Source: a virus (lineage: Duplodnaviria > Caudoviricetes). Taken from it: a DNA stretch of 64,000 nt. Both the position numbers and the translations under genes were made by a program. The stretch lies in IMG/VR virus record IMGVR_UViG_3300037189_030782, one strand, 5' to 3'. Below, piece by piece: positions 3,263-27,131 of this stretch (position 1 is its first letter; the number at the start of each line of letters is the position of its first letter). The notes below the pieces were generated by a model. The model saw only the letters and a program-made list of their open reading frames with translations, ran no database searches and was not told the DNA's origin.

Positions 3263-3274
3263 CGGTAACCCAAA

Positions 3275-3288: not shown

Positions 3289-3295
3289 CCGCATA

Positions 3296-7909: not shown

Positions 7910-8523
7910 TGGCGACCCTTACAAGCTATGACAAAGCAGCTGCGGAAACTTGCGTGTTACTCTATGCCGATGGAATTCAGCAGGAGTTCCAGTTCCCTCC
8001 AAAAGTTACGAGCGACGACGCCAATTTGGAATGGAATAGTACCGCAGGATCTGCATATACTGGCGAAATACTTTTTCCAAAATCAATTAAAAATCGTACG
8101 TTAAAGTTAGAATGGACGTACCTACCAGGCTTCGATGGCTGGAGCATAGCGGATGTCCAAATTCAAGTTCGCAATTTCAGAGGTTTTATCTATGCTGGTG
8201 TGCTGGCGGACAAAGAAGCATCTACTTATGCATTTGCAATAGATTTCAAATACCCAGGAATTACGGGCGATAGCACGCAGACAGTGGCGATGAGTGACAT
8301 GTCAGTAAAATACTCTGACACGATGTACACTAGTCCGATTGTGTATCCGACTAAGGTAGATCTCTCATGTACGCTAAAGCTATGGTATAATGTTGCCGCT
8401 GGCAAAAAGGCTGGTGAAGATGCGAAAAGCGCAAAGCCAGACCCCAAAAATCCTAATCCTCAACCGAAGGTAGATGATGATGGTGGTTTAAATCTTAAAA
8501 ATGTAAGTTATGCGTGGTACTAA
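7909..8523 (+). CDS. Tail-tube initiator / baseplate gp48-gp54-like protein
   Basis: FQFPPKVTSDD..LEWNS...TLKLEWTY pattern; position between tape measure and gp53-like gene. Start moved to the ATG in the TAATG overlap. Confidence 0.45.
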   Translation: MATLTSYDKAAAETCVLLYADGIQQEFQFPPKVTSDDANLEWNSTAGSAYTGEILFPKSIKNRTLKLEWTYLPGFDGWSIADVQIQVRNFRGFIYAGVLADKEASTYAFAIDFKYPGITGDSTQTVAMSDMSVKYSDTMYTSPIVYPTKVDLSCTLKLWYNVAAGKKAGEDAKSAKPDPKNPNPQPKVDDDGGLNLKNVSYAWY

Positions 8524-8524
8524 T

Positions 8525-8830
8525 ATGGCAAGCAATGTTTCTAGATATAATAAAACCAAAATGCTGACCTACCAGCAGCAATCTACCTATGGCGTGTGGG
8601 TTGTGCCAATTGATTTAGCCAGTATCCCAGAAGATCGTATATCAACATACGTTGTGACCACAGGGTTAGCCGGGCGGGCCGATATTATCGCTGGCTATTT
8701 ATACGGTAACCCACAGTACGATTGGGTTTTGTACACATACAATAATGTTGTCGATACAATAAATTGGCCACCAGTTGGATTGGTTATAAAATATCCAATT
8801 GCATCTTACCTGCTACCACGGATTTCGTAA
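8525..8830 (+). CDS. Baseplate wedge gp53-like / LysM tail protein
   Basis: TYVVT..GRADIIAGYLYGNPQYDWVLYTYNN...GLVIKYP. Confidence 0.65.
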   Translation: MASNVSRYNKTKMLTYQQQSTYGVWVVPIDLASIPEDRISTYVVTTGLAGRADIIAGYLYGNPQYDWVLYTYNNVVDTINWPPVGLVIKYPIASYLLPRIS

Positions 8831-11265
8831 TGGATACGCCTGGGCTATACTACAATAAATTAATACGTGAGCGGTCTACCCCAATAGCCGAACGCTTTCC
8901 TGGTTTCTATCGTGCCATGGTTGTTGACACAAATGATCCATTAAACATGGGGCGTATTCGATTCCTATGCCCAGAAATGCACAATAGTAATATGTCGGTA
9001 GCTGATGCGCCGTTCGCTGTCCCAGCACCGGGTTTTGGTGGTCCGCGGAGCGGAATATTCAGCAACCCTTGTGTCGGGGATGGCGTTTGGATCTCGCTAG
9101 AAAAGCAACATCCATTCGGCCCAATTTGGTTTGCAGGCGCTGATCCTACTAGACAGCGTTATTACACGCGCTTCCAAGTCACCAATCCGAGCCCAGTAAG
9201 TTTGAGTTTTAATGCTGAGCCGCAGGGTCCACCTGAGGATTATGATCCCGATTATCTGCCAAAAGACGGCAGACCTATGAATTTCGGTTACACCGACCGC
9301 TATGGCACGACTGTAATCAGTAGTGCAGTGGGGTTTTTCCCGGTTACTCACACTCTTGCAGACCCTCCTGCGGAGTATGACCCGTACGCTTCTGCTGCAT
9401 ATAATAACGCAAAAGCTAAACCTGAAGTTAATTCTCCTGATAGAAAATATCATGCTGAAATTACTAAATATGGCAATATTTTTCAGTTAAGTGATGTAGG
9501 TTACTACTGGCATAAAAGCGATGATACTTCGTCATTCGGTGAATTTGTTGGCGATCCTGCTGTAGATGAGCCGTTTGAAGATCTAAGATTTAAGTATATT
9601 CAAAGACTTTTAAATGAAGGCCAAGCCAGCACTGCTTCTGGCGGCATGGAGGTGCCTGGTGCCGATCAAAGAAAGATTTCGCTCCTCTCACGCTATGGTC
9701 ATAAATGGGAACAACGTGATGTCGGATATGCTCAACCTGGACCTATGTTAAATTCTGCTAGGCAGAATGAATATGGGCAGGGCCAATTCTTGAGTTTAGA
9801 ATCGCAGAACGACATGCGGTGGCTGAAGTGGCGTAGCAAAGCAGGCAATCTTTATCAAGCTTCTGATGTGGGATACGATCCAGCTTTTAATATTAATATT
9901 AGGAAGACTAATTTAGAAGACGCAGGATATGGTTCTGAAAAAGAAGACCAATATTTTGCTAATAAAGATATGCGCATGACCAGAATCGTCACCCCAGGTG
10001 GGCTGAAATTTGTATTGGATGATCGTGGCGCAGATGTTGCTGATCCTATTGGTAATCCATGGCCGTGTAGCAATGGATTCATGTTAAAAGGCCGTAGACC
10101 AGCTGGATCGTTTGGCATAAAACCTGCATCCGGAGAGAGAGCAACTGCCGTAGCAACGATATCGGAAGGGCGAATTACCGCCATAGAGATCATTAATCCT
10201 GGCAGTATGTACGAGGACCCACCGAAGGTCAGCATTACTGATCCTAACCGCAGCGGCAAGGGGGCGGTTGCTAGAGCTGTGGTTGTTGATGGTTTTACAG
10301 TAAGCATCATCTTAATTGCTTCGGGTGCTTCATATGAAGAAGCAGTTGTCGAGATTGAACCACCGCCGTATGCTCGTGGTTTCTATGTTGAAGCGAACGA
10401 AAATGATTTGAGTAACCATCTGACTATTGGTTCGCCACTTGGATCAGTCTTTGAGCTTAATGATAGGTATCAATATAGTATCATTACTAACGGCCTAGGT
10501 AAGAAATATACCATGCCGTGGCAAGGCATACAGGAGAATGAATTCCTGCGATCGCCTACGATGGTTAATAGCCCAGAATCAACATCATATCACTTAAAGC
10601 TCGATTTACAGAACGAATATTTAAGGCTTAAAACAAGGGGCGGTCAGGGGCCAGGTCCAGAGATTGATAGGGGTGGACCAGTTAACCCTACTGGTGTGAC
10701 TGACGGTATTCAAGCTGGGCTAGAAGCTCACGACGGCCAAAAAGGTGATGGCCCTTGGGTAGAGCTGGTGGACAGCGAAGCTCGTGGGTTTTGGTTTAGT
10801 AAAAAACATAACATAGGCGTGTGGCGTGGGAAAAAAGGCAAAAGGACTTATTTTATTATTGACGATTCTAATGACACGATAAGCATCGTTAATGGAGCTC
10901 CCACTGGAACTATTGAAATATACAGCGCTGGCAATATTAACATGAGAGCTGAGAAGCGTATAAACATGTACGCAGGTCAAGGCATCAGCATGTCTACACC
11001 TCAGAGCATGGTTTTGTCAGGCGGAGCAGCTAAGATTGGAATGGAAGGAATCGGGGTGCATGTCACTGGGTTACCGTCAATCGGTCTAATAAGTGCACCG
11101 ATCATACCGCCTCCAGTACCAAATATACCTGGTAAGCTAGAGCCGACTGACCGTGGCGCTACTTATAATGGGCCGTTCGAATCATGCCCGGATGCAGAGA
11201 TTGAGCATCAGCTTGATTCGTTATTCAGTCAAGTAGACGGCTGGCTCCCTGGCTTTGCGAGGTAA
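8830..11265 (+). CDS. Baseplate central spike (T4 gp5/VgrG-like)
   Basis: N-terminal OB motif FYRAMVVDTNDPLNMGRIR...P.VGDGVWI; C-terminal beta-helix-like repeats (IEIYSAGNINMRAEKRINMYAGQGISMS). Start at the TAATG overlap. Confidence 0.75.
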   Translation: MDTPGLYYNKLIRERSTPIAERFPGFYRAMVVDTNDPLNMGRIRFLCPEMHNSNMSVADAPFAVPAPGFGGPRSGIFSNPCVGDGVWISLEKQHPFGPIWFAGADPTRQRYYTRFQVTNPSPVSLSFNAEPQGPPEDYDPDYLPKDGRPMNFGYTDRYGTTVISSAVGFFPVTHTLADPPAEYDPYASAAYNNAKAKPEVNSPDRKYHAEITKYGNIFQLSDVGYYWHKSDDTSSFGEFVGDPAVDEPFEDLRFKYIQRLLNEGQASTASGGMEVPGADQRKISLLSRYGHKWEQRDVGYAQPGPMLNSARQNEYGQGQFLSLESQNDMRWLKWRSKAGNLYQASDVGYDPAFNINIRKTNLEDAGYGSEKEDQYFANKDMRMTRIVTPGGLKFVLDDRGADVADPIGNPWPCSNGFMLKGRRPAGSFGIKPASGERATAVATISEGRITAIEIINPGSMYEDPPKVSITDPNRSGKGAVARAVVVDGFTVSIILIASGASYEEAVVEIEPPPYARGFYVEANENDLSNHLTIGSPLGSVFELNDRYQYSIITNGLGKKYTMPWQGIQENEFLRSPTMVNSPESTSYHLKLDLQNEYLRLKTRGGQGPGPEIDRGGPVNPTGVTDGIQAGLEAHDGQKGDGPWVELVDSEARGFWFSKKHNIGVWRGKKGKRTYFIIDDSNDTISIVNGAPTGTIEIYSAGNINMRAEKRINMYAGQGISMSTPQSMVLSGGAAKIGMEGIGVHVTGLPSIGLISAPIIPPPVPNIPGKLEPTDRGATYNGPFESCPDAEIEHQLDSLFSQVDGWLPGFAR

Positions 11266-11266
11266 A

Positions 11267-11986
11267 ATGATAATTAAATTCCCCACTGGATTCTATTCTC
11301 GAAGCCAGTTTACGCAGAATATCACATTTACTGTTAGTTCAGCTATGCCGTTCTTCGGAAGTAGCAATATAGCTAAGGTCCCAGAGGGCATCATTGCTCA
11401 AAACCCTAGAGCTCAACAGGGCACTATCATTTCTAGTAGGCCTCAATTCGGCCAACAAATCGCAACTGTCACAAAGGCAAATGCTGCCGCTACAGGGTCG
11501 ACCACAAAAAAATATGCGTATGGTCAAGCCATTGAACTAACGCCTCCGGTACCAGTTGCTAGCGTTGAACAGATGTACGTCTCAACTGGCGTTGAATATC
11601 TACATGACCAAAATGTGTTAGACCTGCAAAGCTTTGGTCTAACTTTTGTAGAGTCTAATTCTCTGACATTTAGTGGGCTTGAAGCGTTTGAGCAGCTGCG
11701 GGTGCAGTTAAGCCAAGCTATTGCTGCAAGGAAGGACGCTGAACTTGGCATAGGACTAGCTAAGACTAACCTTGGCGATTGCGAAAAAACGTTGGCGGCG
11801 GCGAAAGTCATTGGCAGTACACTGATAGGGCCCACGCAATATGACGAAATCATCAAGACCTTAGAAGCTAAAAAGCAACAGTTGCTGGCAGAAATCACTG
11901 CCCAAACTATCATCGCTAATGAGACTGCGCTAAATGCATCGAAGTTGCGTAATGATCTATTAACCGTAGCCACTCTGGTGAACTAA
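11267..11986 (+). CDS. Hypothetical virion-module protein with C-terminal coiled coil
   Basis: Coupled ORF between the gp5-like and gp25 genes. Confidence 0.55.
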   Translation: MIIKFPTGFYSRSQFTQNITFTVSSAMPFFGSSNIAKVPEGIIAQNPRAQQGTIISSRPQFGQQIATVTKANAAATGSTTKKYAYGQAIELTPPVPVASVEQMYVSTGVEYLHDQNVLDLQSFGLTFVESNSLTFSGLEAFEQLRVQLSQAIAARKDAELGIGLAKTNLGDCEKTLAAAKVIGSTLIGPTQYDEIIKTLEAKKQQLLAEITAQTIIANETALNASKLRNDLLTVATLVN

Positions 11987-12363
11987 TGGCAAGTGTATAT
12001 GGTTACAATCCTCCGTTCTATGACGGCAAGTATTCGATCTTGCCTAGGCAGGAAGATGAACGCCTGATAAAGAATGACATTTTGCAATTGCTGCTAACGG
12101 TGCCCGGCGAGAGGTACTACAAGCCTGCTTTTGGCGTTGGCATCAGGAATTATTTGTTTGAGCCATTAGACAACGTGCTCTTAAACAGACTCAGATTATC
12201 GATTATTGATCAGATCAGTAAGAATGAACCTAGAGTCATTAACGTCCGAGTGACACTTACGCCTGATGAAGCGCGTAATGGATTAAATATTCAGATTTTT
12301 TCGAATATGAGAAATCAGCCGAACACGTTCATAAATATCGAACAATTCTTCACGAGGGGATGA
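11986..12363 (+). CDS. Baseplate wedge protein gp25 (GPW_gp25 family)
   Basis: LIKNDILQLLLTVPGERYYKPAFGVGIRNYLFEPLD...KNEPRV. Confidence 0.9.
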   Translation: MASVYGYNPPFYDGKYSILPRQEDERLIKNDILQLLLTVPGERYYKPAFGVGIRNYLFEPLDNVLLNRLRLSIIDQISKNEPRVINVRVTLTPDEARNGLNIQIFSNMRNQPNTFINIEQFFTRG

Positions 12364-12364
12364 C

Positions 12365-14050
12365 ATGGCTGACGCAATAATCACCTTGCCTAACAATTCT
12401 GTTAACGATCAGTTGGTGAAACAGTATGGCGCAGGATCCATCTATTTTCAATTACCACCGGATCCACAACAGATAGGATTATTAACACCAGACAGCAGCT
12501 TACGTTCGCTCGATTTCAGTGGGCTAGACTTTGATACTGCGCGACAGGTGTTATTAGAATACATTAAGACGTACTTTCCAGATAAATTTAATGACTTTGT
12601 AGCTGCAAATGGAATCGTAATGATGACAGAGTTGGTGGCCAGTGCGGTCGCCAAGCTAAGCTTAAGATCTGATCTACTGGCGCAAGAAGCGACGCTAGCC
12701 ACAGCCACGCAAGAGGAATCGGTTTTAAATCATTTAAGTCTGATTAACCAAAAAATTCTACGGCAAACAGCCGCCACCGTAGATTTTGAATGTGTGGTCA
12801 GCAGAATCGCTAGCAGTGACATCAGGATAAATGCTGGAACGAGCTTTAATATCGCTGGAGCTGATGGCAAGAGATTGATTTATGAAGTTTACAAGGCGCC
12901 TGATGATTGGACCAGTCAAATTATCATACCAAGTGGTAAAAAGGGCACTATTGCATTCGGTATCGAAGGTCAATTCACGCAACCAGTAAGCTATTCTTCA
13001 GATGGGACAGCTAACCAATCATTTACTATAAGAGACAATAACATTTTATCTTATCCCGTGTTCATTAAAGTTTCTAATGGGCGCGATATCATAGATTACA
13101 CCGCAATAGATTATCCAATTCAAAAAGCCGGACCCAATGATACGGTCGCTGAGACCATATTCTATGGTGACCGTATGGTGGTAAATTTTGGTGATAATCG
13201 GACTGGCAAAATACCGGCGAGCGGAAGCAGCATTTTAATAAGGTATAGAGTTGGCGGAGGATTAAGGGGTAGGATATCCGCTAACACCATCAGTCAAACC
13301 AACCAGTATGTGTCTGACCCACCGCAATCTTTGCTGGTCAATGTGACTTTCAGTAATGTCACATCGAGTCAGGGCGGTACAGACAAAGAATCTATCGAGG
13401 ACGCAAAGCGACGAGCGCCTAAAGATTTCTCATTGCACGACAGGATCGTTACGATCAGCGATTATAGTCAATTCGCTAAGACGTTTGCTAGTCCTGTATA
13501 TGGAGCTGTGGCAAAAGCAACAGCTATCTGCAGGACTGACATAAATGCTAACTTAGTTGAAGTATATATCTTAGCATTTGGTAAGGATGCACTGGAGCTA
13601 CCAAGTTTGGGTCTTAGAGACGGCTTGAGCAGCAAGATAAGGTTATACAATAATGCTACTGATACTGTTGAGGTTCTGGGCGGCAGGTTAAAGGCGGTAG
13701 ACATCAAAGCTAGCATCATTATTAGTCGCACTGCCGATGGCACTATTGTAAGGCAGGAAGTAGAACGGACTATCAATGAATTCTTTAATTATAATAACTG
13801 GGAACTTGGTGAGGGCTTGTTTTTAAGCAACTTTATTAACACATTAGAGGGTATCGATGGCATTCAGTATGTAGACATGTATGCGCCAAATAGAAATATT
13901 CTTGCCACTAATGAAGTGTTTAACGAAGGCACCGGAACCGCCGGGCATGATCCTTATTTAGTTGGTTTAAACGAATTGATATCTCTAGGCAATAGCCAGA
14001 TTAGTTATTTCTACGAGAAAGTGAGCAATCAACCAACCGTTAGGAGTTAA
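12365..14050 (+). CDS. Baseplate wedge protein gp6 / baseplate J-like
   Basis: LDFSGLDFD...DFVAANG, FGDNRTGKIP, YRVGGG, GGTDKESIEDAKRRAP, RIVTISDY. Confidence 0.87.
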   Translation: MADAIITLPNNSVNDQLVKQYGAGSIYFQLPPDPQQIGLLTPDSSLRSLDFSGLDFDTARQVLLEYIKTYFPDKFNDFVAANGIVMMTELVASAVAKLSLRSDLLAQEATLATATQEESVLNHLSLINQKILRQTAATVDFECVVSRIASSDIRINAGTSFNIAGADGKRLIYEVYKAPDDWTSQIIIPSGKKGTIAFGIEGQFTQPVSYSSDGTANQSFTIRDNNILSYPVFIKVSNGRDIIDYTAIDYPIQKAGPNDTVAETIFYGDRMVVNFGDNRTGKIPASGSSILIRYRVGGGLRGRISANTISQTNQYVSDPPQSLLVNVTFSNVTSSQGGTDKESIEDAKRRAPKDFSLHDRIVTISDYSQFAKTFASPVYGAVAKATAICRTDINANLVEVYILAFGKDALELPSLGLRDGLSSKIRLYNNATDTVEVLGGRLKAVDIKASIIISRTADGTIVRQEVERTINEFFNYNNWELGEGLFLSNFINTLEGIDGIQYVDMYAPNRNILATNEVFNEGTGTAGHDPYLVGLNELISLGNSQISYFYEKVSNQPTVRS

Positions 14051-14051
14051 G

Positions 14052-14444
14052 ATGCATAAAATTTGGGGCACGACTGAGCAGGTCTATCATAGCCCAACGG
14101 TGTCACGTCACAGCATTTCTATTAATGCAAATCATCATTGCAGTATACATTACCACAAGTATAAGACTAATATATTTGCAATCGACTCTGGCGAGCTAGC
14201 TGTAATAAATTATGAGGGTCTAAACTCTAGTTTTGTACTCTTAACGGCTGGCGATTATTACAGTGTTCCACCATTGCTGGTACACTCATTCTACGCTATC
14301 TCGAACGTCACTGCACACGAGATCTATTGTGCTCAATTTGGACATCAAGTTGATGAGCAAGATATTGTCAGATTTAATGAGGGTGGAGTGTGTTTAGACT
14401 TGGAGCAGTTTGTTAGGAATATAAGACATCATAAGAACAGATGA
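14052..14444 (+). CDS. Cupin-domain protein
   Basis: KIWG start; CSIHYHKYKTNIF..DSG and YSVPPLLVHSF cupin metal motifs. Confidence 0.7.
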   Translation: MHKIWGTTEQVYHSPTVSRHSISINANHHCSIHYHKYKTNIFAIDSGELAVINYEGLNSSFVLLTAGDYYSVPPLLVHSFYAISNVTAHEIYCAQFGHQVDEQDIVRFNEGGVCLDLEQFVRNIRHHKNR

Positions 14445-14466
14445 CCAAATGGACGTCATCGTTTTA

Positions 14467-16902
14467 TTACGGTGTATTTGGGGCTTTATAGACTATGGCG
14501 CTGCCGCCGATCTTCTCAGCGGCCTTTTGTAAGGCGAGGTCAAGTATATGCTTGGCCTTTCCAAAAACAATGGACTTGTGCTCTGGCGGAATCATATCAC
14601 CATACTTATCTTGTAGAGTCGAGTCTATTTTCGAATTGATCATGCGGCGCATATTGCCAAGATGCTTAGTAAGGTCTGCACGATATGCTTGTTCCTTATG
14701 TGCAACTAGGCTGGGATTAGCAGCTGGTGTTAAGCGTAGCAGAAAATCATAAAAGTAATGTTGGCGTTGCTCTAACGGTAATCGTGTGTTGAATAGCTTT
14801 TGATTTAAGAAATCTCTAACAGACGGCGCCTTACCAGCCATTGCTGCCTTGATCTGCGTGGCGAAGGCTGTAGCTAGCGGCGTGTCCAAACGTTCTATGG
14901 ATTCAAGTGCATTATGTATGCCACCATGACGGATCTTGTTATCTAAAGAAACTAGATAGGGTAACAATTGTTTTACGTCCGCTCGACCTGTGGTCGACAT
15001 AGTCGCTTGTTGGGCCGCTTGTAGGGCCGCTTGTTTGGCCGCTTCTTGGCTGCCTTTTTTATATCGATAGTAGTTGTTAACGAAATAAGCTGCTGATCTT
15101 TGTCCTACTTCTAAATCGTAGATGATTGATATATAGTATAATGCGACATAGGGCTCCTCCCATTCGTCCATCTCTTTTCGCACTAATGGTTCTTCGATGG
15201 CTTGCCTAGAAGGATCGCTGCCTCGTAACACAGAGTCTGCTCTAACTACATTGGCAAGAATCGCCGCTAAAACTGGCGGTAAATTTTTAATTATTTGATT
15301 CGCAGTAGCTGTAGCGGCTGATTTACCTGTTAGATTTTTCTCGACTTCAGCCATCGCAGCTTGGACCGCAGCGCTATTGCCAAGGGCCACTTTGTAATGG
15401 GAAAATGACTTTACTGGTATGTCGGTATCAAAGCGATTACCATCCCGAGAGGCCGAGCGGTCATACATTAATCCCTTTTGTGCTTTCTTATAAGCACCAC
15501 TGGTCTCATAGGCCAGTTTTCCAATCCTGAGGCATAGCTTGTTGATTCGCTGTAGTATCAAAGAGCCATAGCTATCATCCTCATCCTCATCCTCATCCTC
15601 ATCCTCATCCTCATCCTCATCTACAATTACAATTTCTTGCTCTACAACAGCACTATGGGCATCAACAGCTTCTGGAAATTCTTCCCGCCACTGATCCAGA
15701 GTATCCTTTAGACTATCAGAATCTTTGAGCGCATGGTTTTCTAAAACAAGCTTCAATAATTCCAAGTAAACTGGATCAAGCTGAAAAGAGACGTCTTCAC
15801 CAAGAATATCAACAACACCATCCTTATCGATAATTGACTGGATAGTGGCCAAAACTTTCTTAATACTCTTGATACCGGCTCTGGCGTTTGAATTTTCTTC
15901 AACACCAACTTCGGCCATAGCTTGCTTCAAATTTTTGGAAGAAGCGATTGGCTTTGTCTTCGATTTCTTATTCTGAATCTCTTTTTCTCGTTCTTCAGTC
16001 CTGTCAATGACCTTCTTTGACTGTCGAAGCAAGGTTTCATCGTTATTACTTTCTGCAATAACTTTTTTTGTCTCAGCCCTACCTCTTTTATTTTTAATTG
16101 CGTCTAGCTGTTTGTCCAACTTTGAGGTTTTAGCCTTATGGCTTTCCTGTGCATTGACAATAGCAGCACTTAAAACTTCCGATCTCTTTTCAAGATCGTC
16201 AATCTTTAAAAGTTGGGAGGCTACGCTTCTCTTGATTTTGTCTTCACAAAGCTGAGACAACGTATCTTCGTCAATTTTTTCAAGAAGTTCATCTGTTTCA
16301 TGAAGCCATTTTGAATCTCTTTGCAGGATTTCAAGAATCTGATCGTCACTGGCTCCATACAAACGGAATTCCCGCACAGCAGCCACTTCATGACCGTCCG
16401 TCAGGTTGATGCGATTCTTATTTTCTGCCCATGCGAGCGTTGCAGCTTCAAGATCGCTTGCACAGCTAAATATCTGGCAGACAACGTATTCGTATGCAAT
16501 GTCAGCAGAAACCATTTCTCTTTCAGAAGTAGTTTCTCCAAATTTGCTTTCTCTTGGATCAATTACCATCTCTTTTTTAGAGATGAGATAGTCCAAGGCT
16601 CTATACCTACGATCACCACCAACAAGCTGGGGGTGTGCATTTTCACTATCGCCAACCCAACGGCAAATCAAGGGATTCAAAAGCGTTCTGTGCTTAATGT
16701 TTTCCCTTAGGTCCGCAGACAAAGACCTATCTGTAAGGGTTTCGGTGCCGTTCTGCGTTAAAAGTCTTGGGTTAGAAAATACATAATCCGAAGATTCTTC
16801 CACTTTGTCGGTGGTTATAATTTTTGAAAATTTAACTTTGAAGAGGGAACCGTGGAGATGTTCAATACCGTCAATTAAACCGAAAGAATTTGCCTTTTTC
16901 AT
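14467..16902 (-). CDS. ParB-like N-terminal domain protein fused through a DE repeat to an unrelated C-terminal half (probably chimeric)
   Basis: NPR...LRENIK..TLLNPLICR...LVGGDRRYRAL ParB motif in the N-terminal half; GC changes at the DEDEDE tract. Confidence 0.65.
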   Translation of the reverse strand: MKKANSFGLIDGIEHLHGSLFKVKFSKIITTDKVEESSDYVFSNPRLLTQNGTETLTDRSLSADLRENIKHRTLLNPLICRWVGDSENAHPQLVGGDRRYRALDYLISKKEMVIDPRESKFGETTSEREMVSADIAYEYVVCQIFSCASDLEAATLAWAENKNRINLTDGHEVAAVREFRLYGASDDQILEILQRDSKWLHETDELLEKIDEDTLSQLCEDKIKRSVASQLLKIDDLEKRSEVLSAAIVNAQESHKAKTSKLDKQLDAIKNKRGRAETKKVIAESNNDETLLRQSKKVIDRTEEREKEIQNKKSKTKPIASSKNLKQAMAEVGVEENSNARAGIKSIKKVLATIQSIIDKDGVVDILGEDVSFQLDPVYLELLKLVLENHALKDSDSLKDTLDQWREEFPEAVDAHSAVVEQEIVIVDEDEDEDEDEDEDEDDSYGSLILQRINKLCLRIGKLAYETSGAYKKAQKGLMYDRSASRDGNRFDTDIPVKSFSHYKVALGNSAAVQAAMAEVEKNLTGKSAATATANQIIKNLPPVLAAILANVVRADSVLRGSDPSRQAIEEPLVRKEMDEWEEPYVALYYISIIYDLEVGQRSAAYFVNNYYRYKKGSQEAAKQAALQAAQQATMSTTGRADVKQLLPYLVSLDNKIRHGGIHNALESIERLDTPLATAFATQIKAAMAGKAPSVRDFLNQKLFNTRLPLEQRQHYFYDFLLRLTPAANPSLVAHKEQAYRADLTKHLGNMRRMINSKIDSTLQDKYGDMIPPEHKSIVFGKAKHILDLALQKAAEKIGGSAIVYKAPNTP
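15575..15621. repeat. Perfect hexanucleotide microsatellite (TCATCC)7+TCATC encoding poly-(Asp-Glu) on the - strand
   Basis: Read directly; 47 bp perfect. Confidence 0.98.
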
Positions 16903-16944
16903 CGAAAAGTCCTTTTTTCTGTAAAGGTTGAAGAAATCAAAAAA

Positions 16945-17580
16945 TCAAAATTCGTATCCCTTGGTTTTTGAAAAGGGTTTGCGGCAGCGTATCAAGTTGG
17001 TTGTTTCATACTCCTTTTCACCCAAACTCTCAATACCGACATTCTTTTTTCTTAACAATAATCCTTCTAGCTGTGGGTTGTCTAAAGATTCATCAAATCT
17101 AGAAGAAAAGTTGTCATAGAAAGTTTCAGCCATCCAGTGAGATGGCGATATCTCTAATGCGATTCCTGACCTACTCTTTTTTGTGGGGCTTCCACAAATT
17201 GAATTCAAAATTTCAAGTCGCTCAACTTGCGTTGGCTTAAAAAACAAGTATCTGCCAGCTTGCAACACATCAAAGAAAATTATTTCATTGGTGGCATTAA
17301 TGTCTTTGTTCATTAATTCACCATCAAGCCAATATTCTTTGTTTTGCTCAAGATTCAAGCTATCTAATAGCTCATCCCGCCTTTTGCTTTCAAACTGGAA
17401 TTTTGAAAAAGCAGTGCCGTGTCTAGTCCCAACAGTAACTTCTTTATTGCAAGAAATATGCAGAACTATTCTGCTGCCCCTAAACTTTCTTTGTGCTACC
17501 CAATCTCCAGTTTCTTCATAGTAACGAAGATCCGTAGGAAGCATTTTGCCTTTGGGTCTGGGCGGGAAAATAATCTTCAT
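16945..17580 (-). CDS. Stand-alone ATP-dependent ligase / capping-type nucleotidyltransferase domain
   Basis: Motif I AQRKFRG, WLDGEL, FFDVL, EGLLLRKK; 211 aa with no OB domain. Confidence 0.7.
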   Translation of the reverse strand: MKIIFPPRPKGKMLPTDLRYYEETGDWVAQRKFRGSRIVLHISCNKEVTVGTRHGTAFSKFQFESKRRDELLDSLNLEQNKEYWLDGELMNKDINATNEIIFFDVLQAGRYLFFKPTQVERLEILNSICGSPTKKSRSGIALEISPSHWMAETFYDNFSSRFDESLDNPQLEGLLLRKKNVGIESLGEKEYETTNLIRCRKPFSKTKGYEF

Positions 17581-17751
17581 AGTGATTTAACCCTCCCTCC
17601 CCAGTTTAAGGTAGCCTACCACCTTGAAATCCTTTGGTTGGCTGGGGGAATATGATAGCACAGATTTTTAGCTTGTTAAGTCCATTTTTCCCGAAAAATA
17701 CTGAGATTTTTTGCCTCTAATCTGCCGCATAAACCCCAAACAGCCCAGATT

Positions 17752-18387
17752 CTAATTGCTATCGCAAATTTTAAAAATGCTCCCACAGACCAAGCATTTA
17801 GCACGGAGAGGATTAGAACTTTTAATGCCCCTTCCACATCTAACCGAGTTGTAGGGACTTGGGCAATCACATTCGTATTTTAGAAAAAATGCTTTTTTAT
17901 TTTTTGAATTTGAGACTAAGGTGCCTCTGTCTATTTTTTCCCATTGAAAAGCATTTAATTCACAAAGAATTTTAGAATTATTTTCTGTGAATGGAATTCT
18001 GATAAACTGCGGGAGTAAGGCGTTCCTAGGAACTTCTGTGCTGAGAACAGACCATCCTTGTGCCTTGTGTTTAACAACAATGAAGCCGATACTCAAAGCA
18101 CAGTCAGCAAAAGCGTTTTTATGATAAAAATTTCTTCCAACATCAACGATTCTTTGTTGATGGTTAAAAATATGAATCATTTCATGGCACATACTAATAA
18201 AAAAATCTTCTTTAGTAGTGTACCTTGCACCAGAACCTAGCCTTAAATGATTATCTTTCCAAGAAAATAAAAAATTTTCTTGTGGAAGAATACAAAGAGG
18301 AACCTTTTGGATTCTTCCTGAGAAAAAAGATTTATTGATTGAAGAAAATAAGTTTTCTATTTGAACCAATAAATCAGGTTCTTTCAT
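17752..18387 (-). CDS. SprT-like zinc metalloprotease with C-terminal Zn ribbon
   Basis: MCHEMIH (HExxH), YHKNAF, C-terminal CDC...C..C. Confidence 0.65.
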
Positions 18388-18565
18388 AGCTCTTTTTTCT
18401 TTCAGCTTCCTTTATTGCTTCATAAACTTCGCTCCTATGCACTGGTATGCGATCTGGAGCTTCTATGCCTAATCTAACGGTGTCACCCCTAATGTCTACG
18501 ATAAAAATTCTGACATTGTCGCCAATAACAACACTTTCATCCTTTTTCCTGCTTAAAACTAACAT
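18374..18565 (-). CDS. csrA: Carbon storage regulator CsrA/RsmA
   Basis: [46 protein letters not shown]. Confidence 0.95.
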
Positions 18566-18637
18566 CAGAAATTCCTTTTTCGATGGAAAAAAACAAACCC
18601 AAGGAATGATAACACATTCACAAGAAAAATCAAGACA

Positions 18638-18669
18638 AAAAAACCACTGAGGTTTCCCCCAGTGGTTTT
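18638..18669 (-). terminator. Rho-independent terminator
   Basis: - strand CCACUGGGG-GAAA-CCUCAGUGG followed by a U-tract. Confidence 0.75.
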
Positions 18670-18693
18670 ATTTACGAATAGTTTTATTTCAAC

Positions 18694-18849
18694 TTAGAAT
18701 AATCTTTGGCCACAGACTGTTACAGCTGCGACCCAAGCTCCGGCCTTGCCGTTGCAAATTCCAAGAGCCTGAGCAATTCTGCTGCAACGTGGATAAAAGT
18801 ATTTCCAAGAAGCAGTTGTGTAGGTTCCATTTGGTTTTAAGCATCTCAT
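18694..18849 (-). CDS. Small Cys-rich protein (51 aa), absent from the ORF track
   Basis: AAGGAGG SD, ATG at 18849; MRCLKPNGTYTTASWKYFYPRCSRIAQALGICNGKAGAWVAAVTVCGQRLF*; terminator directly downstream. Confidence 0.65.
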   Translation of the reverse strand: MRCLKPNGTYTTASWKYFYPRCSRIAQALGICNGKAGAWVAAVTVCGQRLF

Positions 18850-18894
18850 GAGATATCCTCCTTAATAAATGTTTGAAGCTATACTCCAACATAA

Positions 18895-19698
18895 TTATAT
18901 ATTAGTTTTCTGCATATCTTTGTCATGTTGTTCTCTAGCTTTTCGCAATATTTCCTTGACTTTTCTATTCTTATCAAATTGTTGTAGTGTGCCTCTGCCG
19001 ATGTGAGAAACCCAGCTAGAACCACAAACTCCTTGCTTAAAACCTTTAGAATTCATTCTCTTGGCAAACTCTTCTGCTTCGCAACCAGCATAAGGGTATT
19101 CTTTAAATAAACCAACATGTTTAAATAGATCTCTGTGAGCAAGTGCACAGTAAAGAGGCAAAAACTCATTTTTTAAAATGTAATTTTCTCCACTAAAAGA
19201 CCTTTTGCTTTTTAAGACATCGAAATCTACTACTGGATTATCTGTTTTTGGGGAAACCATTTTCACATTATCTTTTTTGAACGACTCCAAAAAATTGCCT
19301 AAATTTAAAAGCCAATCTTTGCTATCCAGCGAAACGTCAGAGTGCATTAATAAAACATATGGTATTTCTTTTGTTGAATTATTTTCAAATATCCAAGGAT
19401 TTGACAAAGCAAAGTTTATTGAGGATCCAAAACCTTTATTTTGTCTTTGTCTTAAGCACCGTAAGCCAGGAACCTTAGATTTTTGTATTTGTGTGTGAAA
19501 TTCGTTGTTGGAAGAACCGTCATCAACCAAAGTAACAAGGTACCTATTAGAATAAACGGTATTAAAAATGTCCTGAACTAAATTGCTTACAAACGAGTGC
19601 TTTCCATAAAAAGGAATTATTATTTCGACCTCTTTTTTGGCGAATAACTCGGTCCTTATTGTCCTATTGATCATTATTTTGTTTTCTTCCGCCATCAA
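18895..19698 (-). CDS. Glycosyltransferase family 2
   Basis: IIIPFYG, TLVDDGS, NKGFGSSIN, MHSDV (DxD-like), YAGCEAEEF. Confidence 0.78.
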   Translation of the reverse strand: MMAEENKIMINRTIRTELFAKKEVEIIIPFYGKHSFVSNLVQDIFNTVYSNRYLVTLVDDGSSNNEFHTQIQKSKVPGLRCLRQRQNKGFGSSINFALSNPWIFENNSTKEIPYVLLMHSDVSLDSKDWLLNLGNFLESFKKDNVKMVSPKTDNPVVDFDVLKSKRSFSGENYILKNEFLPLYCALAHRDLFKHVGLFKEYPYAGCEAEEFAKRMNSKGFKQGVCGSSWVSHIGRGTLQQFDKNRKVKEILRKAREQHDKDMQKTNI

Positions 19699-19759
19699 GG
19701 CTCCTACTAAATTTAAAAGAAAATGACTGTTATATATTAGAGTTATATGGGAAAGAAAA

Positions 19760-20677
19760 ATGAATCAAAAAAGCATTAAAGAGTACATAAGAGCATTAGA
19801 TCACATTAGTAGTTTTCTGAAAACTCTTCTAGAAGAAGAGAATAAAATTGTACCTTTTCAAAAAGGTGAAAGGGACAGGCTATCAGAAATAACAGAACTA
19901 AGGATGTTGGCTAAATCAGATGTTTGGCCTGAGGCGGTGCCGCCAGAACTAATATGCAACGATATAGAAGAAGAAAAAATGTCAAGAGCCGCTGGCATTG
20001 TTCAAGACTTCATAGCAATGGATCTAAAAGAAAAATCATTCTTGGACTTTGGATGTGGAGAAGGCCACGTTCCATACGTTGCTGCCACTCTATATGAATC
20101 TAAAAATGTTGTTGGATATGATATAAAAAACCAAGACTGGGCAGCTCTTGACCCACACGATGAATTAAAATTCACGACAGAATGGGAAGATGTTAGAAGA
20201 AAAGGACCATATGATATTATTTTAATAAACGATGTGCTTGATCACTGCAAAGATCCAGCTTCTACACTACAAATGATCCAAGAAGTCAAAAAGCCTATCG
20301 ATGGGCAAGTTTTTCTAAGAATACACCCTTGGACAAGTCGCCATGGATCACATCTTTATAAACAATTAAATAAAGCCTATCTACATTTAGTTTTTACAAA
20401 AGATGAGCTGTATGCAATGGGGCTAGAACCTCCAGAAATTTTAAGAATAATAAACCCAATCAAAACATATAAAAGATTCATCAAAGATGCAGGGTTTACA
20501 ATACTCAAAGAAAGTGTGGTAACTCAACCAGTAGAGTTGTTCTTCACCCACACCCCAGAAGTACTTCGAAGAATAAAATCCAATTGGAGAAATAGCGACG
20601 AACCAAAATTAGCTTCTGGTGAGTTGTTTCCAAGAGAAATATTAGAAATACAGTTTATAGACTTTACTTTGATCTAA
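19760..20677 (+). CDS. Class I SAM-dependent methyltransferase
   Basis: FLDFGCGEG motif I, VVGYDI, YDIILINDVLDH. Confidence 0.8.
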   Translation: MNQKSIKEYIRALDHISSFLKTLLEEENKIVPFQKGERDRLSEITELRMLAKSDVWPEAVPPELICNDIEEEKMSRAAGIVQDFIAMDLKEKSFLDFGCGEGHVPYVAATLYESKNVVGYDIKNQDWAALDPHDELKFTTEWEDVRRKGPYDIILINDVLDHCKDPASTLQMIQEVKKPIDGQVFLRIHPWTSRHGSHLYKQLNKAYLHLVFTKDELYAMGLEPPEILRIINPIKTYKRFIKDAGFTILKESVVTQPVELFFTHTPEVLRRIKSNWRNSDEPKLASGELFPREILEIQFIDFTLI

Positions 20678-21842
20678 GATGATTTATTGCGTGATTCCAA
20701 TCATCCTGTGCACCTCCTTGTATACTTAGTTCTTGTCTTTCTTTAAACCTTTCAAATGCAGCAAATTCTATATCCGAGTGACTGAAGTTTTTCTCTAATC
20801 TAGCTATTGCCTCTTCGAAGTCATTACCTTGTTCAAAATACTCTTTGAGTCTAAAGATTTGATCTAGATTCAAGCCATCAGATTTTTCCGCCCAGTCTTG
20901 AACTAAAATCTTTTTTCTTATAGATAAATTTGGGTTTGAAAAGCACCTTGTGTACTTAAATCTGGAAGGTCTGTTTCTCAAGGCTGAATCTACTTTTGAA
21001 ATGTCGTTTACAGTCATTATAAAAACTACGTTTTCATAAGTGGTATAAACTCCATCTAATCCGTTCAAGATTATGTCATAAGTAAATTTGATTGTACGGT
21101 TTCCTTCACCACCCATTATACATTTTCTTCCATGAAAATAATTATCAAAGTCTTCAAATAAAACTATGCACTTTTTTGGAATCTGCGAAAACATAAGAAG
21201 CAAATCCTGATTGTTCCAATCAGGATCTAGCGTAAAGATCATTATGGGCAATTTGTGCTTTGTAGAAAGATACTTTATAAATGAAGTTTTCCCGTTTCCA
21301 GGTGGCCCATAAAAAAGGGCACTAGTGGTTGATCTTTTAAGTTGAGATACCTCTTCAACCTCTCTATCAAAATCAACCCAAAGAGAATCATCAACAATAG
21401 GAGCTGGAAAAGTCTTCTTTAAAGAACCGATTTTATCAGCACCGTAGGGTAGCATAAGTTCTACAGGAACTCCCAAAGTATAAAACTGCATTTCTTTTAT
21501 TCTGCCATGTAGATACTTTTTTAATTTAGAATATTGCCAACGAAAACAAAAAATAAAAGTCAAATGGTCTTTGCCGTGATATCCTGCTTGCATCAATCTT
21601 TCTGTTCGATCTATGTAAAACCAAGGAGAACCATTAAAAAAACAAAAAGCAGAAAAAATAACGGGATGACGGTTTTCAGTTACAAATTCTTCGTGAATAA
21701 TTATCTTTTTCTCTTCTTTACAAAGCTCGTACAGAGTTTTAAAAGTATTAGTGTCTATTCGGGTTTCTATCAATAGAACATACTTAAAAACAGCCCAAAT
21801 CCCTACAAAAGATGCAAGAAGAGTAAAAACCGTTGACCACAT
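20664..21842 (-). CDS. AAA+ ATPase (BCS1-like) with C-terminal DUF2934-like tail
   Basis: GPPGNGKT, LFEDFD, ILNGLDG, RPSRF; tail IEFAAFERF...QDDWNHA. Confidence 0.85.
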   Translation of the reverse strand: MWSTVFTLLASFVGIWAVFKYVLLIETRIDTNTFKTLYELCKEEKKIIIHEEFVTENRHPVIFSAFCFFNGSPWFYIDRTERLMQAGYHGKDHLTFIFCFRWQYSKLKKYLHGRIKEMQFYTLGVPVELMLPYGADKIGSLKKTFPAPIVDDSLWVDFDREVEEVSQLKRSTTSALFYGPPGNGKTSFIKYLSTKHKLPIMIFTLDPDWNNQDLLLMFSQIPKKCIVLFEDFDNYFHGRKCIMGGEGNRTIKFTYDIILNGLDGVYTTYENVVFIMTVNDISKVDSALRNRPSRFKYTRCFSNPNLSIRKKILVQDWAEKSDGLNLDQIFRLKEYFEQGNDFEEAIARLEKNFSHSDIEFAAFERFKERQELSIQGGAQDDWNHAINHLRSK

Positions 21843-21956
21843 AAAATCTTCTTATTGAGGGGTCACCAAAAAAAGCAATTTAGTTCTGGGGTTCGATTTA
21901 GTCAATACCGAAAAGAAATTACATATATATTTAGAAATAGTTTAAATGGAAGCAAT

Positions 21957-22688
21957 ATGATTAAATTTAAAGAATGGTTTCAAATATCTGAGAGTAAAGG
22001 TATACGGTTAACCGATGAAATCGTGTCCCAAATTAAATCGTCTATCGACAAAATTTATCAAACAGCAAAAGCTATTAAAAAAGAGCCCGAGGGAGAGGTT
22101 TTTGATGTAGCAATAATAAAGTATAACGATCCATACTTTAAAGATAGGCAACGTGAAATAAACATACACGTTGTAAACAATAGCTATGAAAACAATAATG
22201 GGTCATTTAGAATAGGATACGGCATACAAATCAATGTTGCTCATGTTGAAGAAGAAGAACTAACTCCTAGGTGGATTGAAAGAGTAGTAGCCCATGAATT
22301 AATACACTCTATGGACCCAAAAATGAGTAACTTTAATACTTTTAAAAACGTCAAAAACTACGATAACAAAGGTGGAATCGATTACTACACTCATCCATTC
22401 GAATTCGATGCATATACAGGACAGCTAGCCTACTCAATAACAACTGCTGCGGATAGACTAAAAGGTACTGATAAAGAACCGATATTAAAAAAACAGTTAG
22501 ATGACACATTAAGATTTATATCTAATCCTGAGAAATCTAAAGCCGAAAAAATTTACGGAGTTATTGGTGATCCCGAGTACTGGAAGTATTATCACATATA
22601 CTTCGCACACGGATCATCGCAACAAAAGCGTAAAATGTATCAAAGAATATATAAAGCTGTGATAGATGCTAAGGCAAATTTGGGCTAA
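21957..22688 (+). CDS. HExxH zinc-metallopeptidase-like protein with capsid-targeting-like N-terminus
   Basis: AHELIHSMD and YYTHPFEFDAY; start MIKFKEWFQISE. Confidence 0.6.
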   Translation: MIKFKEWFQISESKGIRLTDEIVSQIKSSIDKIYQTAKAIKKEPEGEVFDVAIIKYNDPYFKDRQREINIHVVNNSYENNNGSFRIGYGIQINVAHVEEEELTPRWIERVVAHELIHSMDPKMSNFNTFKNVKNYDNKGGIDYYTHPFEFDAYTGQLAYSITTAADRLKGTDKEPILKKQLDDTLRFISNPEKSKAEKIYGVIGDPEYWKYYHIYFAHGSSQQKRKMYQRIYKAVIDAKANLG

Positions 22689-22691
22689 TTA

Positions 22692-22931
22692 TCAGTGATC
22701 AAAAGATCTGATTGCGTCCCTATTCTTTTTAGATCTTGAACCTTTATAAATATTTGAATCTGAGCTTCCAGAACGTCCATATGTTTTTGAATCACCTTGA
22801 CCGGCCATGTCGTGTATACGTGATTTACTTGTTCTTAAGGCAAGCTCTTGGTTACTCTTAATTCTTGGTTGTTTAGTTGCTGATTTTTGATTTCTTTTTT
22901 CTCTTCTTTCCAACCATAATGAAAACTTCAT
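22692..22931 (-). CDS. Small basic protein (MKFSLWLE N-terminus)
   Basis: Tightly packed ORF; K/R/S-rich. Confidence 0.6.
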   Translation of the reverse strand: MKFSLWLERREKRNQKSATKQPRIKSNQELALRTSKSRIHDMAGQGDSKTYGRSGSSDSNIYKGSRSKKNRDAIRSFDH

Positions 22932-22933
22932 AT

Positions 22934-23185
22934 TTATCCTTCCAAAAGCTCTAGAATCTTTGGGCTTTTTCCAATGTATATATTGTACACATGTTCCGCT
23001 TTTTTTCCGTTTAATGTGAAAATATCGCCATTTTTTAAAGGCTTATTTATATAAGGAACATAAACAGCCTGATTGTTTAAATTTAAGATTACATTTTCTA
23101 TGTTCTCCGTCATAGGCCTAGAATATATTTCTGTGTAATCAATGTTATTAACTACAAAAGTATAAATTGGAGGAGTTAGAGGCAT
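22934..23185 (-). CDS. Hypothetical protein
   Basis: Operonic spacing with neighbours. Confidence 0.6.
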   Translation of the reverse strand: MPLTPPIYTFVVNNIDYTEIYSRPMTENIENVILNLNNQAVYVPYINKPLKNGDIFTLNGKKAEHVYNIYIGKSPKILELLEG

Positions 23186-23851
23186 TTATTCTTCTTTCTT
23201 CCAAGATACAGGTTTTGAACTTTTTTTCCTCCTTTTACCAGTGGCATTGCAGGCCGAAAAAGTTGGCCTACAAGCAGGATACTTTCTTTCTGCTCCTTTT
23301 CCTGCTTTACTTCTACCACATGGAACCTTTTTAGTCTTAGTGCTAGCCTTGCAATCGATCCATCCTTTGCCTTTATTTCTAGAAAACCAACCATGAAGGC
23401 CTTTTTCTTTTTCAAGATCAAATGTTCCTTCCCGAAAATCTTTTTTGTCCACACTGCCACTTGCGACAGCCTTTATCCTTCCAGCAAATGTGCTGGGTTT
23501 CACGCCTTCTGGTGGATATTTTCTCATGGCAGCTAAAGCATTGATGATCTCTGGGCCTGACATATTGGCTACGTCCATGTCTTGATACATTAAAGCATTA
23601 AGGGCACTTGCTGCATCGTCGTATTGCTGCTTATTTGCTAGAACTTCGTCTATTTGCACACCCTCTTCTTGCATGTGTTTTTTCTTTTTATGTTTTTTCT
23701 TTTTGGAGTTACCATAATTTTTGGCACCTTTTTTCCTACATTGGACAACCCGTCCGCTAGCATAGGCAGAGGGCCACACAGATGCTGTAGCTTTTACTTT
23801 ATAATAACAAGCATCTTTTTCTTCGTTCATTAACCATTCACTAAAATTCAT
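23186..23851 (-). CDS. Conserved phage protein with two Cys/Lys-rich modules
   Basis: DACYYKVK...VWPSAYASG..VQCRKKG and WF...WIDC...PCGR...KYPACRP, both motifs familiar from T4-like phage hypotheticals. Confidence 0.6.
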   Translation of the reverse strand: MNFSEWLMNEEKDACYYKVKATASVWPSAYASGRVVQCRKKGAKNYGNSKKKKHKKKKHMQEEGVQIDEVLANKQQYDDAASALNALMYQDMDVANMSGPEIINALAAMRKYPPEGVKPSTFAGRIKAVASGSVDKKDFREGTFDLEKEKGLHGWFSRNKGKGWIDCKASTKTKKVPCGRSKAGKGAERKYPACRPTFSACNATGKRRKKSSKPVSWKKEE

Positions 23852-23891
23852 ATATTCCTCCCAAACTTTAATTATATATTAACGATACTAA

Positions 23892-24491: not shown

Positions 24492-24850
24492 CCTGCTCCT
24501 TGGAGATCCTGCGTCTTTATCAGAAGCTCCCCTACTACCTCTATTCTCCCCAATAACTTTTGAAACTCTATCTGATTTACTTTTTCTATCGAGTTCATTT
24601 TTGAGTGTAGACGTGTACATAATTCTTGATATTCCTTTTTCATTTCTACTCTATCAAATTTACCTTCTTTTGCCTTTTCATAATATGGCAATTTTACAGA
24701 AAAATGATCTCTAGTTAAAAGGGCTGGGCCACCTTTTTTGTCAGCCATATTTACTATCTTTTCTGCTCCTTGATATCTCTTGCCTGCAAATGTTACGAAA
24801 TCAGATTCTATGGATTCATTTATTCCAGATAATTTAAGCCATTCATTCAT
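24488..24850 (-). CDS. Hypothetical protein (MNEWLKL..NE N-terminus)
   Basis: AAAGGA SD; coupled to the HNH gene. Confidence 0.6.
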   Translation of the reverse strand: MNEWLKLSGINESIESDFVTFAGKRYQGAEKIVNMADKKGGPALLTRDHFSVKLPYYEKAKEGKFDRVEMKKEYQELCTRLHSKMNSIEKVNQIEFQKLLGRIEVVGELLIKTQDLQGAG

Positions 24851-24897
24851 AATTTTCCTTTCTTTTAATTATATATACATTAAAGTGAGTCAAAACA

Positions 24898-25332: not shown

Positions 25333-25341
25333 GAAAAATAA

Positions 25342-25626: not shown

Positions 25627-25630
25627 ACTC

Positions 25631-27120: not shown

Positions 27121-27131
27121 TTTATTTGCTC

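Follow-up and report, generated by a model that had tools for sequence, protein, structure and literature searches.

A coding (TCATCC)n microsatellite as the probable mis-join point of two large phage genomes in one viral contig

The 64,000-nucleotide stretch of Caudoviricetes DNA analysed here (IMG/VR record IMGVR_UViG_3300037189_030782), which we call the window, carries an open reading frame (ORF), P0001, at positions 14467..16902 on the minus strand that encodes 811 amino acids in an uninterrupted frame. Residues 1-427 (15622..16902, minus strand) resemble the N-terminal and central part of ParB/Noc/Spo0J proteins, a (DE)n run occupies residues ~428-443, and residues ~444-811 with the stop codon (14467..15574, minus strand) form an unrelated C-terminal domain of the P0003 family. 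The acidic run coincides with a perfect (TCATCC)x7.8 microsatellite at 15575..15621, which is read on the minus strand as (GATGAG)n and encodes (Asp-Glu)n. Tandem Repeats Finder scores this tract as the top tandem repeat of the window (period 6, 7.8 copies, 100% matches), and a regular-expression count gives its length as 47 bases. An earlier, sequence-only reading had described this microsatellite within the ORF, and the two programs confirm it. The same reading took the ORF for a ParB-like protein fused in frame through an acidic run to an unrelated protein, a layout borne out by the open frame, the ParB fold and the unrelated C-terminal part. The tract is also the junction of two blocks: the left block (1..15574; GC 0.44), to whose lineage (44% GC) the C-terminal half belongs, and the right block (15622..64000, mostly minus strand; GC 0.35), to whose lineage (35% GC) the ParB-like half belongs.

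The N-terminal half contains a GGDRRYRA motif, which resembles the ParB box II arginine patch. Its score against the Pfam ParB_N model (PF02195) is 18.1 bits (E = 0.0028, residues 63-104), under the cut-off of 26.3, and a profile search of the PDB returned Spo0J at an E-value of 0.35 only. An AlphaFold2 model of this half has a mean pLDDT of 76.8, and the top 25 Foldseek matches of the model in the PDB are all Noc, ParB, Spo0J or KorB (probability 0.97-1.00, E-values 1e-5 to 2e-2), with alignments to these proteins over ~200-230 columns reaching a probability of 1.00. Judged from the model, residues 1-427 are thus predicted to carry the ParB N-domain and helix-turn-helix fold, despite a sequence score below the Pfam threshold. 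Residues 1-419 are 91% identical to the proteins P0002 and P0013. Among nine homologues of this half (454-493 amino acids), all nine end in an acidic tail, and in the native relatives a long coiled-coil segment and an acidic tail of 50-80 amino acids replace the C-terminal dimerisation domain of ParB-type proteins. P0001 lacks this 50-80-residue tail, together with an aromatic (F/Y)Y near the C-terminus that is found in most relatives.

The C-terminal half is 96% identical to residues 92-466 of P0003. Proteins of this family are 466-478 amino acids long, and the half in P0001 is without their conserved 91-residue N-terminal domain, which is retained even in a homologue of 29% identity (P0174). 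P0003-type proteins had no sequence match in the PDB and no usable match in the ESM Atlas, and an AlphaFold2 model built from five sequences (mean pLDDT 46.9) gave an all-helical prediction only. Neither the whole ORF nor either half had a PHROGs family, and a blastn comparison with GenBank phages was likewise without a match.

On the plus strand, the left block encodes a Toprim primase, a 1537-residue protein, a baseplate hub, gp25, Baseplate J and a cupin, and it ends with the P0003-type gene on the minus strand. This block is 97-99.4% identical to six records (G001, L002, L003, L016, L022 and L023). Three of them (L002, L003 and L016) match the left flank at 99.0-99.4% identity up to 15595-15598, beyond which they continue into the N-terminal domain of P0003 and then a conserved upstream gene set. 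The order of these upstream genes is the same in four separate contig records, one of them available as a gene table only, and tblastx found no counterpart of the left-lineage upstream DNA in the window.

The right block encodes ParB-like, ligase-like, CsrA, GT2, methyltransferase, AAA, PhoH, DnaJ, aldehyde dehydrogenase, TPP enzyme and other proteins. It is 100% identical over 12,006 bases to the scaffold L042, a match that includes all the DNA of the ParB-like half, 89% identical to three further contigs (L001, L012 and L013), and 63-78% identical in patches to two others (L004 and L007). The 89% identity to the three contigs starts at 15570. After the tract, the right-side relatives continue with the acidic tail and with a block from PRPP synthetase to ClpX, neither of which the window has. 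The gene run CsrA-glyoxalase-ATP_bind_3-ClpX downstream of the ParB gene is common to these three contigs and to the more distant L004 and L007, and the window lacks this downstream run. Overall, identity with left-lineage contigs ends at 15595-15598 and identity with right-lineage contigs begins at 15570-15575, so that both changes of partner fall at the tract. The dominant strand had been described as switching around this point as well. The switch is not at the repeat: plus-strand baseplate genes meet the minus-strand ORF at 14444/14467, a convergent arrangement that left-lineage contigs (L002 and L016) have natively.

Base composition differs between the blocks, with a GC content of 0.442 for 1-15574 versus 0.352 for 15622-64000, and a GC content at third codon positions (GC3) of 0.417 in left-block versus 0.289 in right-block genes. 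Within the ORF, each half tracks its own side (GC3 of 0.415 in the C-terminal and 0.361 in the N-terminal half). The tetranucleotide comparison of the two sides that the sequence-only reading had proposed shows a log-likelihood ratio that changes sign at ~15500. The hand-sampled GC ranges of that reading were roughly right, but the repeat is not marked by a sharp step in raw GC, since the ParB-like gene itself is richer in GC (0.39-0.44) than its neighbours, an excess that is also seen in relatives. Within the left lineage, the 75 kb of G001 remain at a GC of 0.405-0.463 throughout, and the right-lineage loci of the window's nearest relatives lie at 0.35-0.39.

To place the blocks, lineages were compared by markers from each side: gp25 and Baseplate J (11986..14050, plus strand) for the left and PhoH (42067..42771, minus strand) for the right. 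PhoH is the only homologue that tblastx found in common between ~107 kb of left-lineage and ~112 kb of right-lineage DNA. In each of three ParB-lineage records (G002, G003 and G004) the single PhoH match is 68-72% identical to the right-block PhoH, which shares only 41% identity with the PhoH of the left-lineage record G001. Baseplate genes of the ParB lineage were sought in the IMG/VR relatives G002-G006, and in G003 a separate gp25 and Baseplate J lie ~187 kb away from the ParB gene, with a Baseplate J only 29% identical to that of the window. The GC content of G003 is fairly even, at 0.44-0.48 over three distant loci. The window's Baseplate J has an 88% identical relative on a 254-kb contig with a GC of 0.42. 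Another Baseplate J homologue, P0135, was considered as a ParB-lineage representative and rejected, as it lies in a distant left-type locus where baseplate genes are followed by RNR. The two blocks are parts of compositionally and phylogenetically distinct jumbo-phage lineages, and the caution that they should not be assumed to be one organism is upheld by synteny, composition and the affiliations of PhoH and Baseplate J.

Both blocks could nevertheless come from one huge phage in which a deletion or rearrangement, real or made by the assembler, had taken place between two copies of the tract. Both lineages are large (CheckV estimates imply genomes of several hundred kb, with contigs of up to 254-444 kb), and a genome of that size could house both genes. 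We regard this as very unlikely, since GC is even within each lineage (over 75 kb on the left, and over 48 kb plus relatives on the right) and nine points apart between them, left-lineage contigs carry their own primase, RNR, helicase and PhoH at ~43% GC, the ParB-lineage record G003 carries a separate and very different baseplate module, and PhoH is the sole shared gene that tblastx found. Lower still is the probability that P0001 is a conserved, genuine two-domain gene whose relatives are merely split elsewhere. The frame does stay open through the tract, but this is automatic given that both tracts share a codon phase, and we consider such a gene extremely improbable. Both parts are shortened relative to their own families, the synteny is different on each flank, and neither of two large searches gave a fused homologue. 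A phmmer search of 1.84 billion representative proteins returned 232 matches, and no fused relative was present among the best 150, all of which are at most 474 amino acids long and match one half each. A word-indexed search of 5.8 billion proteins, which admitted lengths of 446-1420 amino acids, found half-length proteins only and no protein with both halves. The check for full-length homologues carrying both halves, called for at the outset, thus speaks for two genes. The search for a record of the exact 811-residue protein also found none, a weak negative. Most likely, P0001 is an artefact in which two genes were joined in frame.

The tract itself is native to both lineages, in the same codon phase, GAT|GAG, and any join in register is therefore automatically in frame. 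In the left lineage it measures 21 bases in L002 and L003 and 69 bases in L022 and L023, followed by native P0003 sequence. The right-lineage scaffold L042 (185,736 bp), whose 12-kb end was compared and is 100.000% identical to window positions 15575-27580, has a tract of at least 61 bases; it ends inside the tract, 14 repeat bases further than in the window. Left- and right-lineage phages also occur together: L016 and L008 were both recovered from JGI sample 3300010334, and L002, L005 and L042 all derive from the KRAE22-1 series. The right strain is present at 100% identity in run ERR2848577 and in the runs of sample SAMEA4981870, which is part of that series.

Considering these observations together, the window is very probably a chimeric contig, produced by an inter-genome mis-join of two large freshwater phages at the tract, and we infer that assembly software, as opposed to an event inside a cell, created the join. 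This agrees with the original suggestion of an assembly mis-join at a 47-bp repeat common to two genomes, which synteny, composition, the native tracts and the homologue searches all support. Under this explanation, two large freshwater phages from the same lake sample series would have contributed to the contig, one of ~43-44% GC with the baseplate module and one of ~35% GC with the ParB-like, ligase-like and CsrA run and many auxiliary genes. In the 35% GC phage the tract would open the acidic C-terminal tail of the ParB-like protein, and in the 44% GC phage it is a linker of variable copy number between the N- and C-terminal domains of a protein of 466-478 amino acids. Because the tract is longer than common assembly word sizes, the two genomes would share one looped node in the k-mer graph, which the assembler may have entered from one genome and left into the other. 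The mis-join would stay in frame because the coding hexamer repeats of the two genomes share a codon phase, and the product would be a false 811-residue ORF that has neither the tail of the ParB-like protein nor the N-terminal domain of the other. The tract length must be 5 modulo 6, and 47 bases is the shortest path through the repeat loop for k = 43-48, values that would fit some MEGAHIT k-lists. We considered this length as a clue to the assembler and dropped it as non-diagnostic, since a tract of any such length could equally arise in a real recombinant.

The main competing explanation is a real recombinant, in which illegitimate or microhomology-guided recombination at the (GATGAG)n tracts of co-infecting jumbo phages created a true fusion of ParB to the second protein. 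Both lineages have long, identical tracts that share orientation and codon phase and could be a substrate for recombination, the lineages were found in the same lake sample series, and the copy number of the tract is unstable in nature (3.5 versus 11.5 copies). The 47-base tract is also shorter than ordinary reads of 100-150 bases, so single reads can span it, and an assembler run with k of at least 55 ought to need real junction words to build this contig. We still consider such an event unlikely. The junction form was found in no other assembly, and no record of the 811-residue protein was found; L042, identical to the window on the right side, stops in the tract but has 14 more repeat bases than the window before the latter passes into the left block. 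With the fusion, the conserved N-terminal domain of one protein and the acidic tail of the other are lost. The hybrid must also have lost the conserved downstream block of the ParB lineage, and would have a second PhoH too if the contig's left continuation matches G001. That the join is real and belongs to a viable hybrid genome, in which the acidic tail of the ParB-like protein was swapped for the C-terminal domain of the protein of a baseplate-adjacent gene, is decidedly improbable. If it were true, coding microsatellites would serve as portable sites of recombination between phage genomes that otherwise lack homology.

Other contigs were searched for the junction. The Logan contig L043 from run X1 ends in the tract, where a break at k = 31 is expected, and a 15.5-kb contig of run X2 ends ~40 bases beyond 15563, probably within the tract, which is masked there. 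No bridging contig was found, as expected under both hypotheses, since Logan contigs at k = 31 cannot cross a pure 47-base tract. An exact pattern of right flank plus repeat had 0 matches in the viral_contigs and metagenome_contigs collections; the pattern of left flank plus repeat matched native forms only, with nothing in viral_contigs. In viral_contigs, P0002 had no match and P0003 had one weak match at 30% identity. Run X1 had no contig on 13500-15563 with the right side at a word depth of 57, and runs X2, X3 and X9 had on the right side either nothing or a 47-base piece of a relative; such absence of cover proves nothing in any of these runs, and no run contained more than 0.51 of the sampled words. 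The uneven cover of the flanks among runs fits two separate genomes, and we did not count it as evidence.

Short tandem repeats are documented breakpoints of misassembly, and inter-genome translocations are a common class of error (PMC9661791). The window resembles the inter-genome translocations described for metaMIC (PMC9661791) and DeepMAsED (bioRxiv 10.1101/763813) in that the breakpoint lies in a tandem repeat shared by co-occurring genomes, composition and synteny change there, and other assemblies break at the same place. It differs in that the shared piece is a coding (Asp-Glu)n hexamer tract instead of a conserved gene or mobile element, and in that two unrelated genes share a codon phase, so that the artefact resembles a clean long ORF. 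A long, stop-free, in-frame ORF is hence no guarantee against chimerism. The source record very probably contains DNA of two phages. One therefore cannot rely on its size, completeness or gene inventory, on its assignment to a host or taxon, or on any module that crosses ~15,600. Features left of the tract (the baseplate genes and the primase) should be assigned to the ~43-44% GC phage and those right of it (the ParB-like, ligase-like and CsrA run, the SAM riboswitch, PhoH and the auxiliary metabolic genes) to the ~35% GC phage, and what lies on either side of ~15,600 is best regarded as coming from two organisms.

Apart from the question of the join, the tract in P0003-type genes has a variable copy number of its own. 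Strains that are ~98-99% identical around it have 3.5 versus 11.5 hexamer copies, and a microsatellite of variable length forms the acidic linker of the P0003-type protein. As in other length polymorphisms of coding simple sequence repeats (SSRs), the tract always varies by whole codon pairs. It differs from an on/off switch of phase variation: such switching by this tract is precluded because the repeat unit is a multiple of three, and, unlike in SSR phase variation, a change in copy number alters the length of the acidic linker only.

The open reading frame at 14467..16902 (minus strand) runs for 811 codons without interruption across a perfect hexamer tract, (TCATCC)x7.8, at 15575-15621, the top-scoring tandem repeat of the whole 64 kb. 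The sequence-only reading had placed a microsatellite inside one frame here and had described a ParB-like part fused in frame through an acidic run to an unrelated protein, and we find the frame as described. Read in the sense direction, the composite protein has three parts: residues 1-427, in which the motif GGDRRYRA is followed by long helices; the (Asp-Glu)n run encoded by the tract; and the last ~370 residues, which bear no relation to residues 1-427.

A word-indexed search of 5.8 billion proteins, admitting lengths of 446-1420 aa, found ten proteins of 454-493 aa, each of which spans about half of the composite query. Nine match residues 1 to ~420 at 39-91% identity and end in an acidic tail of 50-80 aa, most of them with a conserved aromatic (F/Y)Y motif close to the C-terminus. 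The tenth is P0003 (466 aa), 96% identical over residues 437-811 in an alignment that begins at P0003's residue 92, past an N-terminal domain missing from the window. Exhaustive phmmer against 1.84 billion representatives gave 232 hits, and no full-length homologue with both halves was found among the best 150, all of which are at most 474 aa and cover one half each. These include P0174, which has its own acidic linker and is 29% identical to P0003 in an end-to-end alignment including the N-terminal domain. The composite frame therefore lacks both the conserved N-terminal domain of the P0003 family and the acidic tail of the ParB-like family.

The N-half matches the Pfam ParB family below threshold, and the top 25 PDB matches of its AlphaFold2 model (pLDDT 76.8) are all ParB-family (probability 0.97-1.00). 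The right-lineage gene is thus predicted to code for a ParB/Noc/Spo0J-like protein; the native form runs on into a coiled coil and long acidic tail, and relatives conserve the gene run in which it lies together with CsrA and a ligase-like gene. The left-lineage P0003-type protein is predicted to be all-helical, its structural model being too poor for use; its gene adjoins baseplate genes in the window's closest relatives and is missing from that position in a more distant one.

Three contigs of the left lineage (L002, L003 and L016) share 99.0-99.4% identity with the window as far as 15595-15598. Past this point they run into the P0003 N-terminal domain and a set of conserved upstream genes, whose products are ~150, 116-125, 184-203, 161 and 122 aa long, followed by a methyltransferase, an epimerase and a glycosyltransferase. 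Three right-lineage contigs (L001, L012 and L013) are 89% identical to the window from 15570 on. Upstream of the ParB-like gene they share the window's order (ligase-like, 211-aa gene, CsrA, GT2, methyltransferase, AAA), and downstream they carry PRPP synthetase, DUF6065, CsrA, glyoxalase, ATP_bind_3 and ClpX, a block that, from CsrA on, is also present in two more distant relatives, L004 (on a 444-kb contig) and L007. A tblastx search found no counterpart anywhere in the window for the upstream DNA of the left lineage or for the downstream DNA of the right lineage, and synteny breaks exactly at the tract. Two CsrA copies flank the ParB-like region in relatives (L012 8347-8538 and 15071-15247; L004 8364-8564 and 12614-12829); the window holds only the upstream copy (18374-18565, minus strand), since the downstream block is missing.

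In a tblastx comparison of ~107 kb of left-lineage with ~112 kb of right-lineage DNA, PhoH was the only match. For the PhoH of the right block, identity is 68-72% to the single match in each of the ParB-lineage IMG/VR records G002, G003 and G004, and 41% to that of the left-lineage record G001. The left block and G001 between them carry a primase and a PhoH; a left-type relative on a 254-kb contig (Baseplate J 88% identical) carries RNR and a helicase. G003 (340 kb; ParB identity 44%) possesses a gp25 and a Baseplate J of its own, ~187 kb away from its ParB gene, with the Baseplate J only 29% identical to the window's. The two blocks very probably belong to different phages; both lineages were found in the same sample series.

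The GC fall claimed across the tract holds between the two sides (0.442 left versus 0.352 right), but raw GC does not step at the tract itself, since the ParB-like gene has a higher GC than the genes next to it, in relatives as well. Codon-level and oligonucleotide measures do change there: GC3 is 0.415 in the C-half versus 0.361 in the N-half, each inside the range of its own side's genes (left 0.38-0.50; right 0.22-0.37), and the tetranucleotide log-likelihood ratio flips sign at ~15500. GC is 0.405-0.463 along the whole of G001 (75 kb), 0.42 in the 254-kb left-type relative and 0.35-0.39 at right-lineage loci of the window's nearest relatives; three distant loci of G003 lie at 0.44-0.48, and there is thus no sign of a GC-rich baseplate domain in the ParB lineage. 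The strand switch claimed near the tract actually lies at 14444/14467, in a convergent arrangement native to the left lineage.

When JGI metagenome contigs were scanned for the left flank together with three repeat units, the matches were L022 (13228-13296) and L023 (minus strand), each with a pure tract of 69 bases (11.5 copies) followed by native P0003 N-terminal sequence; the tract is 21 bases in L002 (2464-2484; 3.5 copies) and L003. The copy number of the (GAGGAT)n linker therefore ranges from 3.5 to 11.5 in strains ~98-99% identical around it, and the tract is a native, copy-number-variable acidic linker in this lineage, a microsatellite that keeps the reading frame of the phage gene encoding it. 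On the other side, a search for exact matches to the ligase-like protein encoded next door in the window found L042, a 185,736 bp scaffold of the KRAE22-1 series, whose 12-kb end is 100.000% identical to 15575-27580 (12,006 bases, no mismatch) and which terminates within the tract, 61 repeat bases in and 14 beyond the window's tract. L043 (8,226 b, run X1) is 100% identical to 15592-23817; its start lies precisely at the point where a pure tract of at least 31 bases forces a k=31 graph to break. A 15.5-kb contig from run X2 matches the left flank at 99.9% identity and ends ~40 bases past 15563, probably also within the masked repeat.

With no fused homologue among the hits listed, a synteny break and a tract native to both lineages, the proposed mis-join of two genomes at a shared repeat stands as the simplest account and is very probably correct; metagenome assembly errors of this kind, mis-joins at short tandem repeats, have been documented (PMC9661791). 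The open frame is uninformative on authenticity, since both lineages' tracts read GAT-GAG and any in-register join stays in frame; a genuine fusion gene is unlikely, as is an intragenomic rearrangement. A real recombinant formed through the tracts common to both lineages is improbable, even though 47 bases is short enough for reads to span. No contig bridging both sides was found among L042 and the X1 and X2 contigs; k=31 contigs cannot cross the tract under any hypothesis, so the join is without independent support and not thereby false.

Several smaller features accompany the proposed inter-genome mis-join. One variant of the left-lineage gene product, P0017, has an interrupted acidic tract (EDEVEDD). 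In L023 (869-2305, minus strand), the P0003-type protein reads SIPYLSVR at residues ~423-430 where other copies have STLQDKYG, a difference that resembles the result of two frameshifts compensating each other, or of faulty assembly. A second tandem repeat in the C-half gene (15004-15049; 12-base unit, 3.8 copies, 85% matches) codes for an Ala/Gln-rich stretch and is also length-variable, four residues being absent there in L023. Positions 14594-14600 are polymorphic: a run X3 contig carries small insertions of 1, 5 and 15 bases at 14597-14599. G001 starts exactly at this spot, where variation between strains may cause assemblies to break. The right block has two ATP-dependent ligase-like genes, one full-size (32774-33919, minus strand; 381 aa) and one a minimal 211-aa form beside the ParB-like gene (16945-17580, minus strand), with only a faint Pfam signal in relatives. 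It also carries, at 47189-53683 (minus strand), genes for a DnaJ complete with J, Cys-rich and C-terminal domains, for an aldehyde dehydrogenase and for a thiamine-pyrophosphate enzyme with three domains, auxiliary functions that are unusual for phages.
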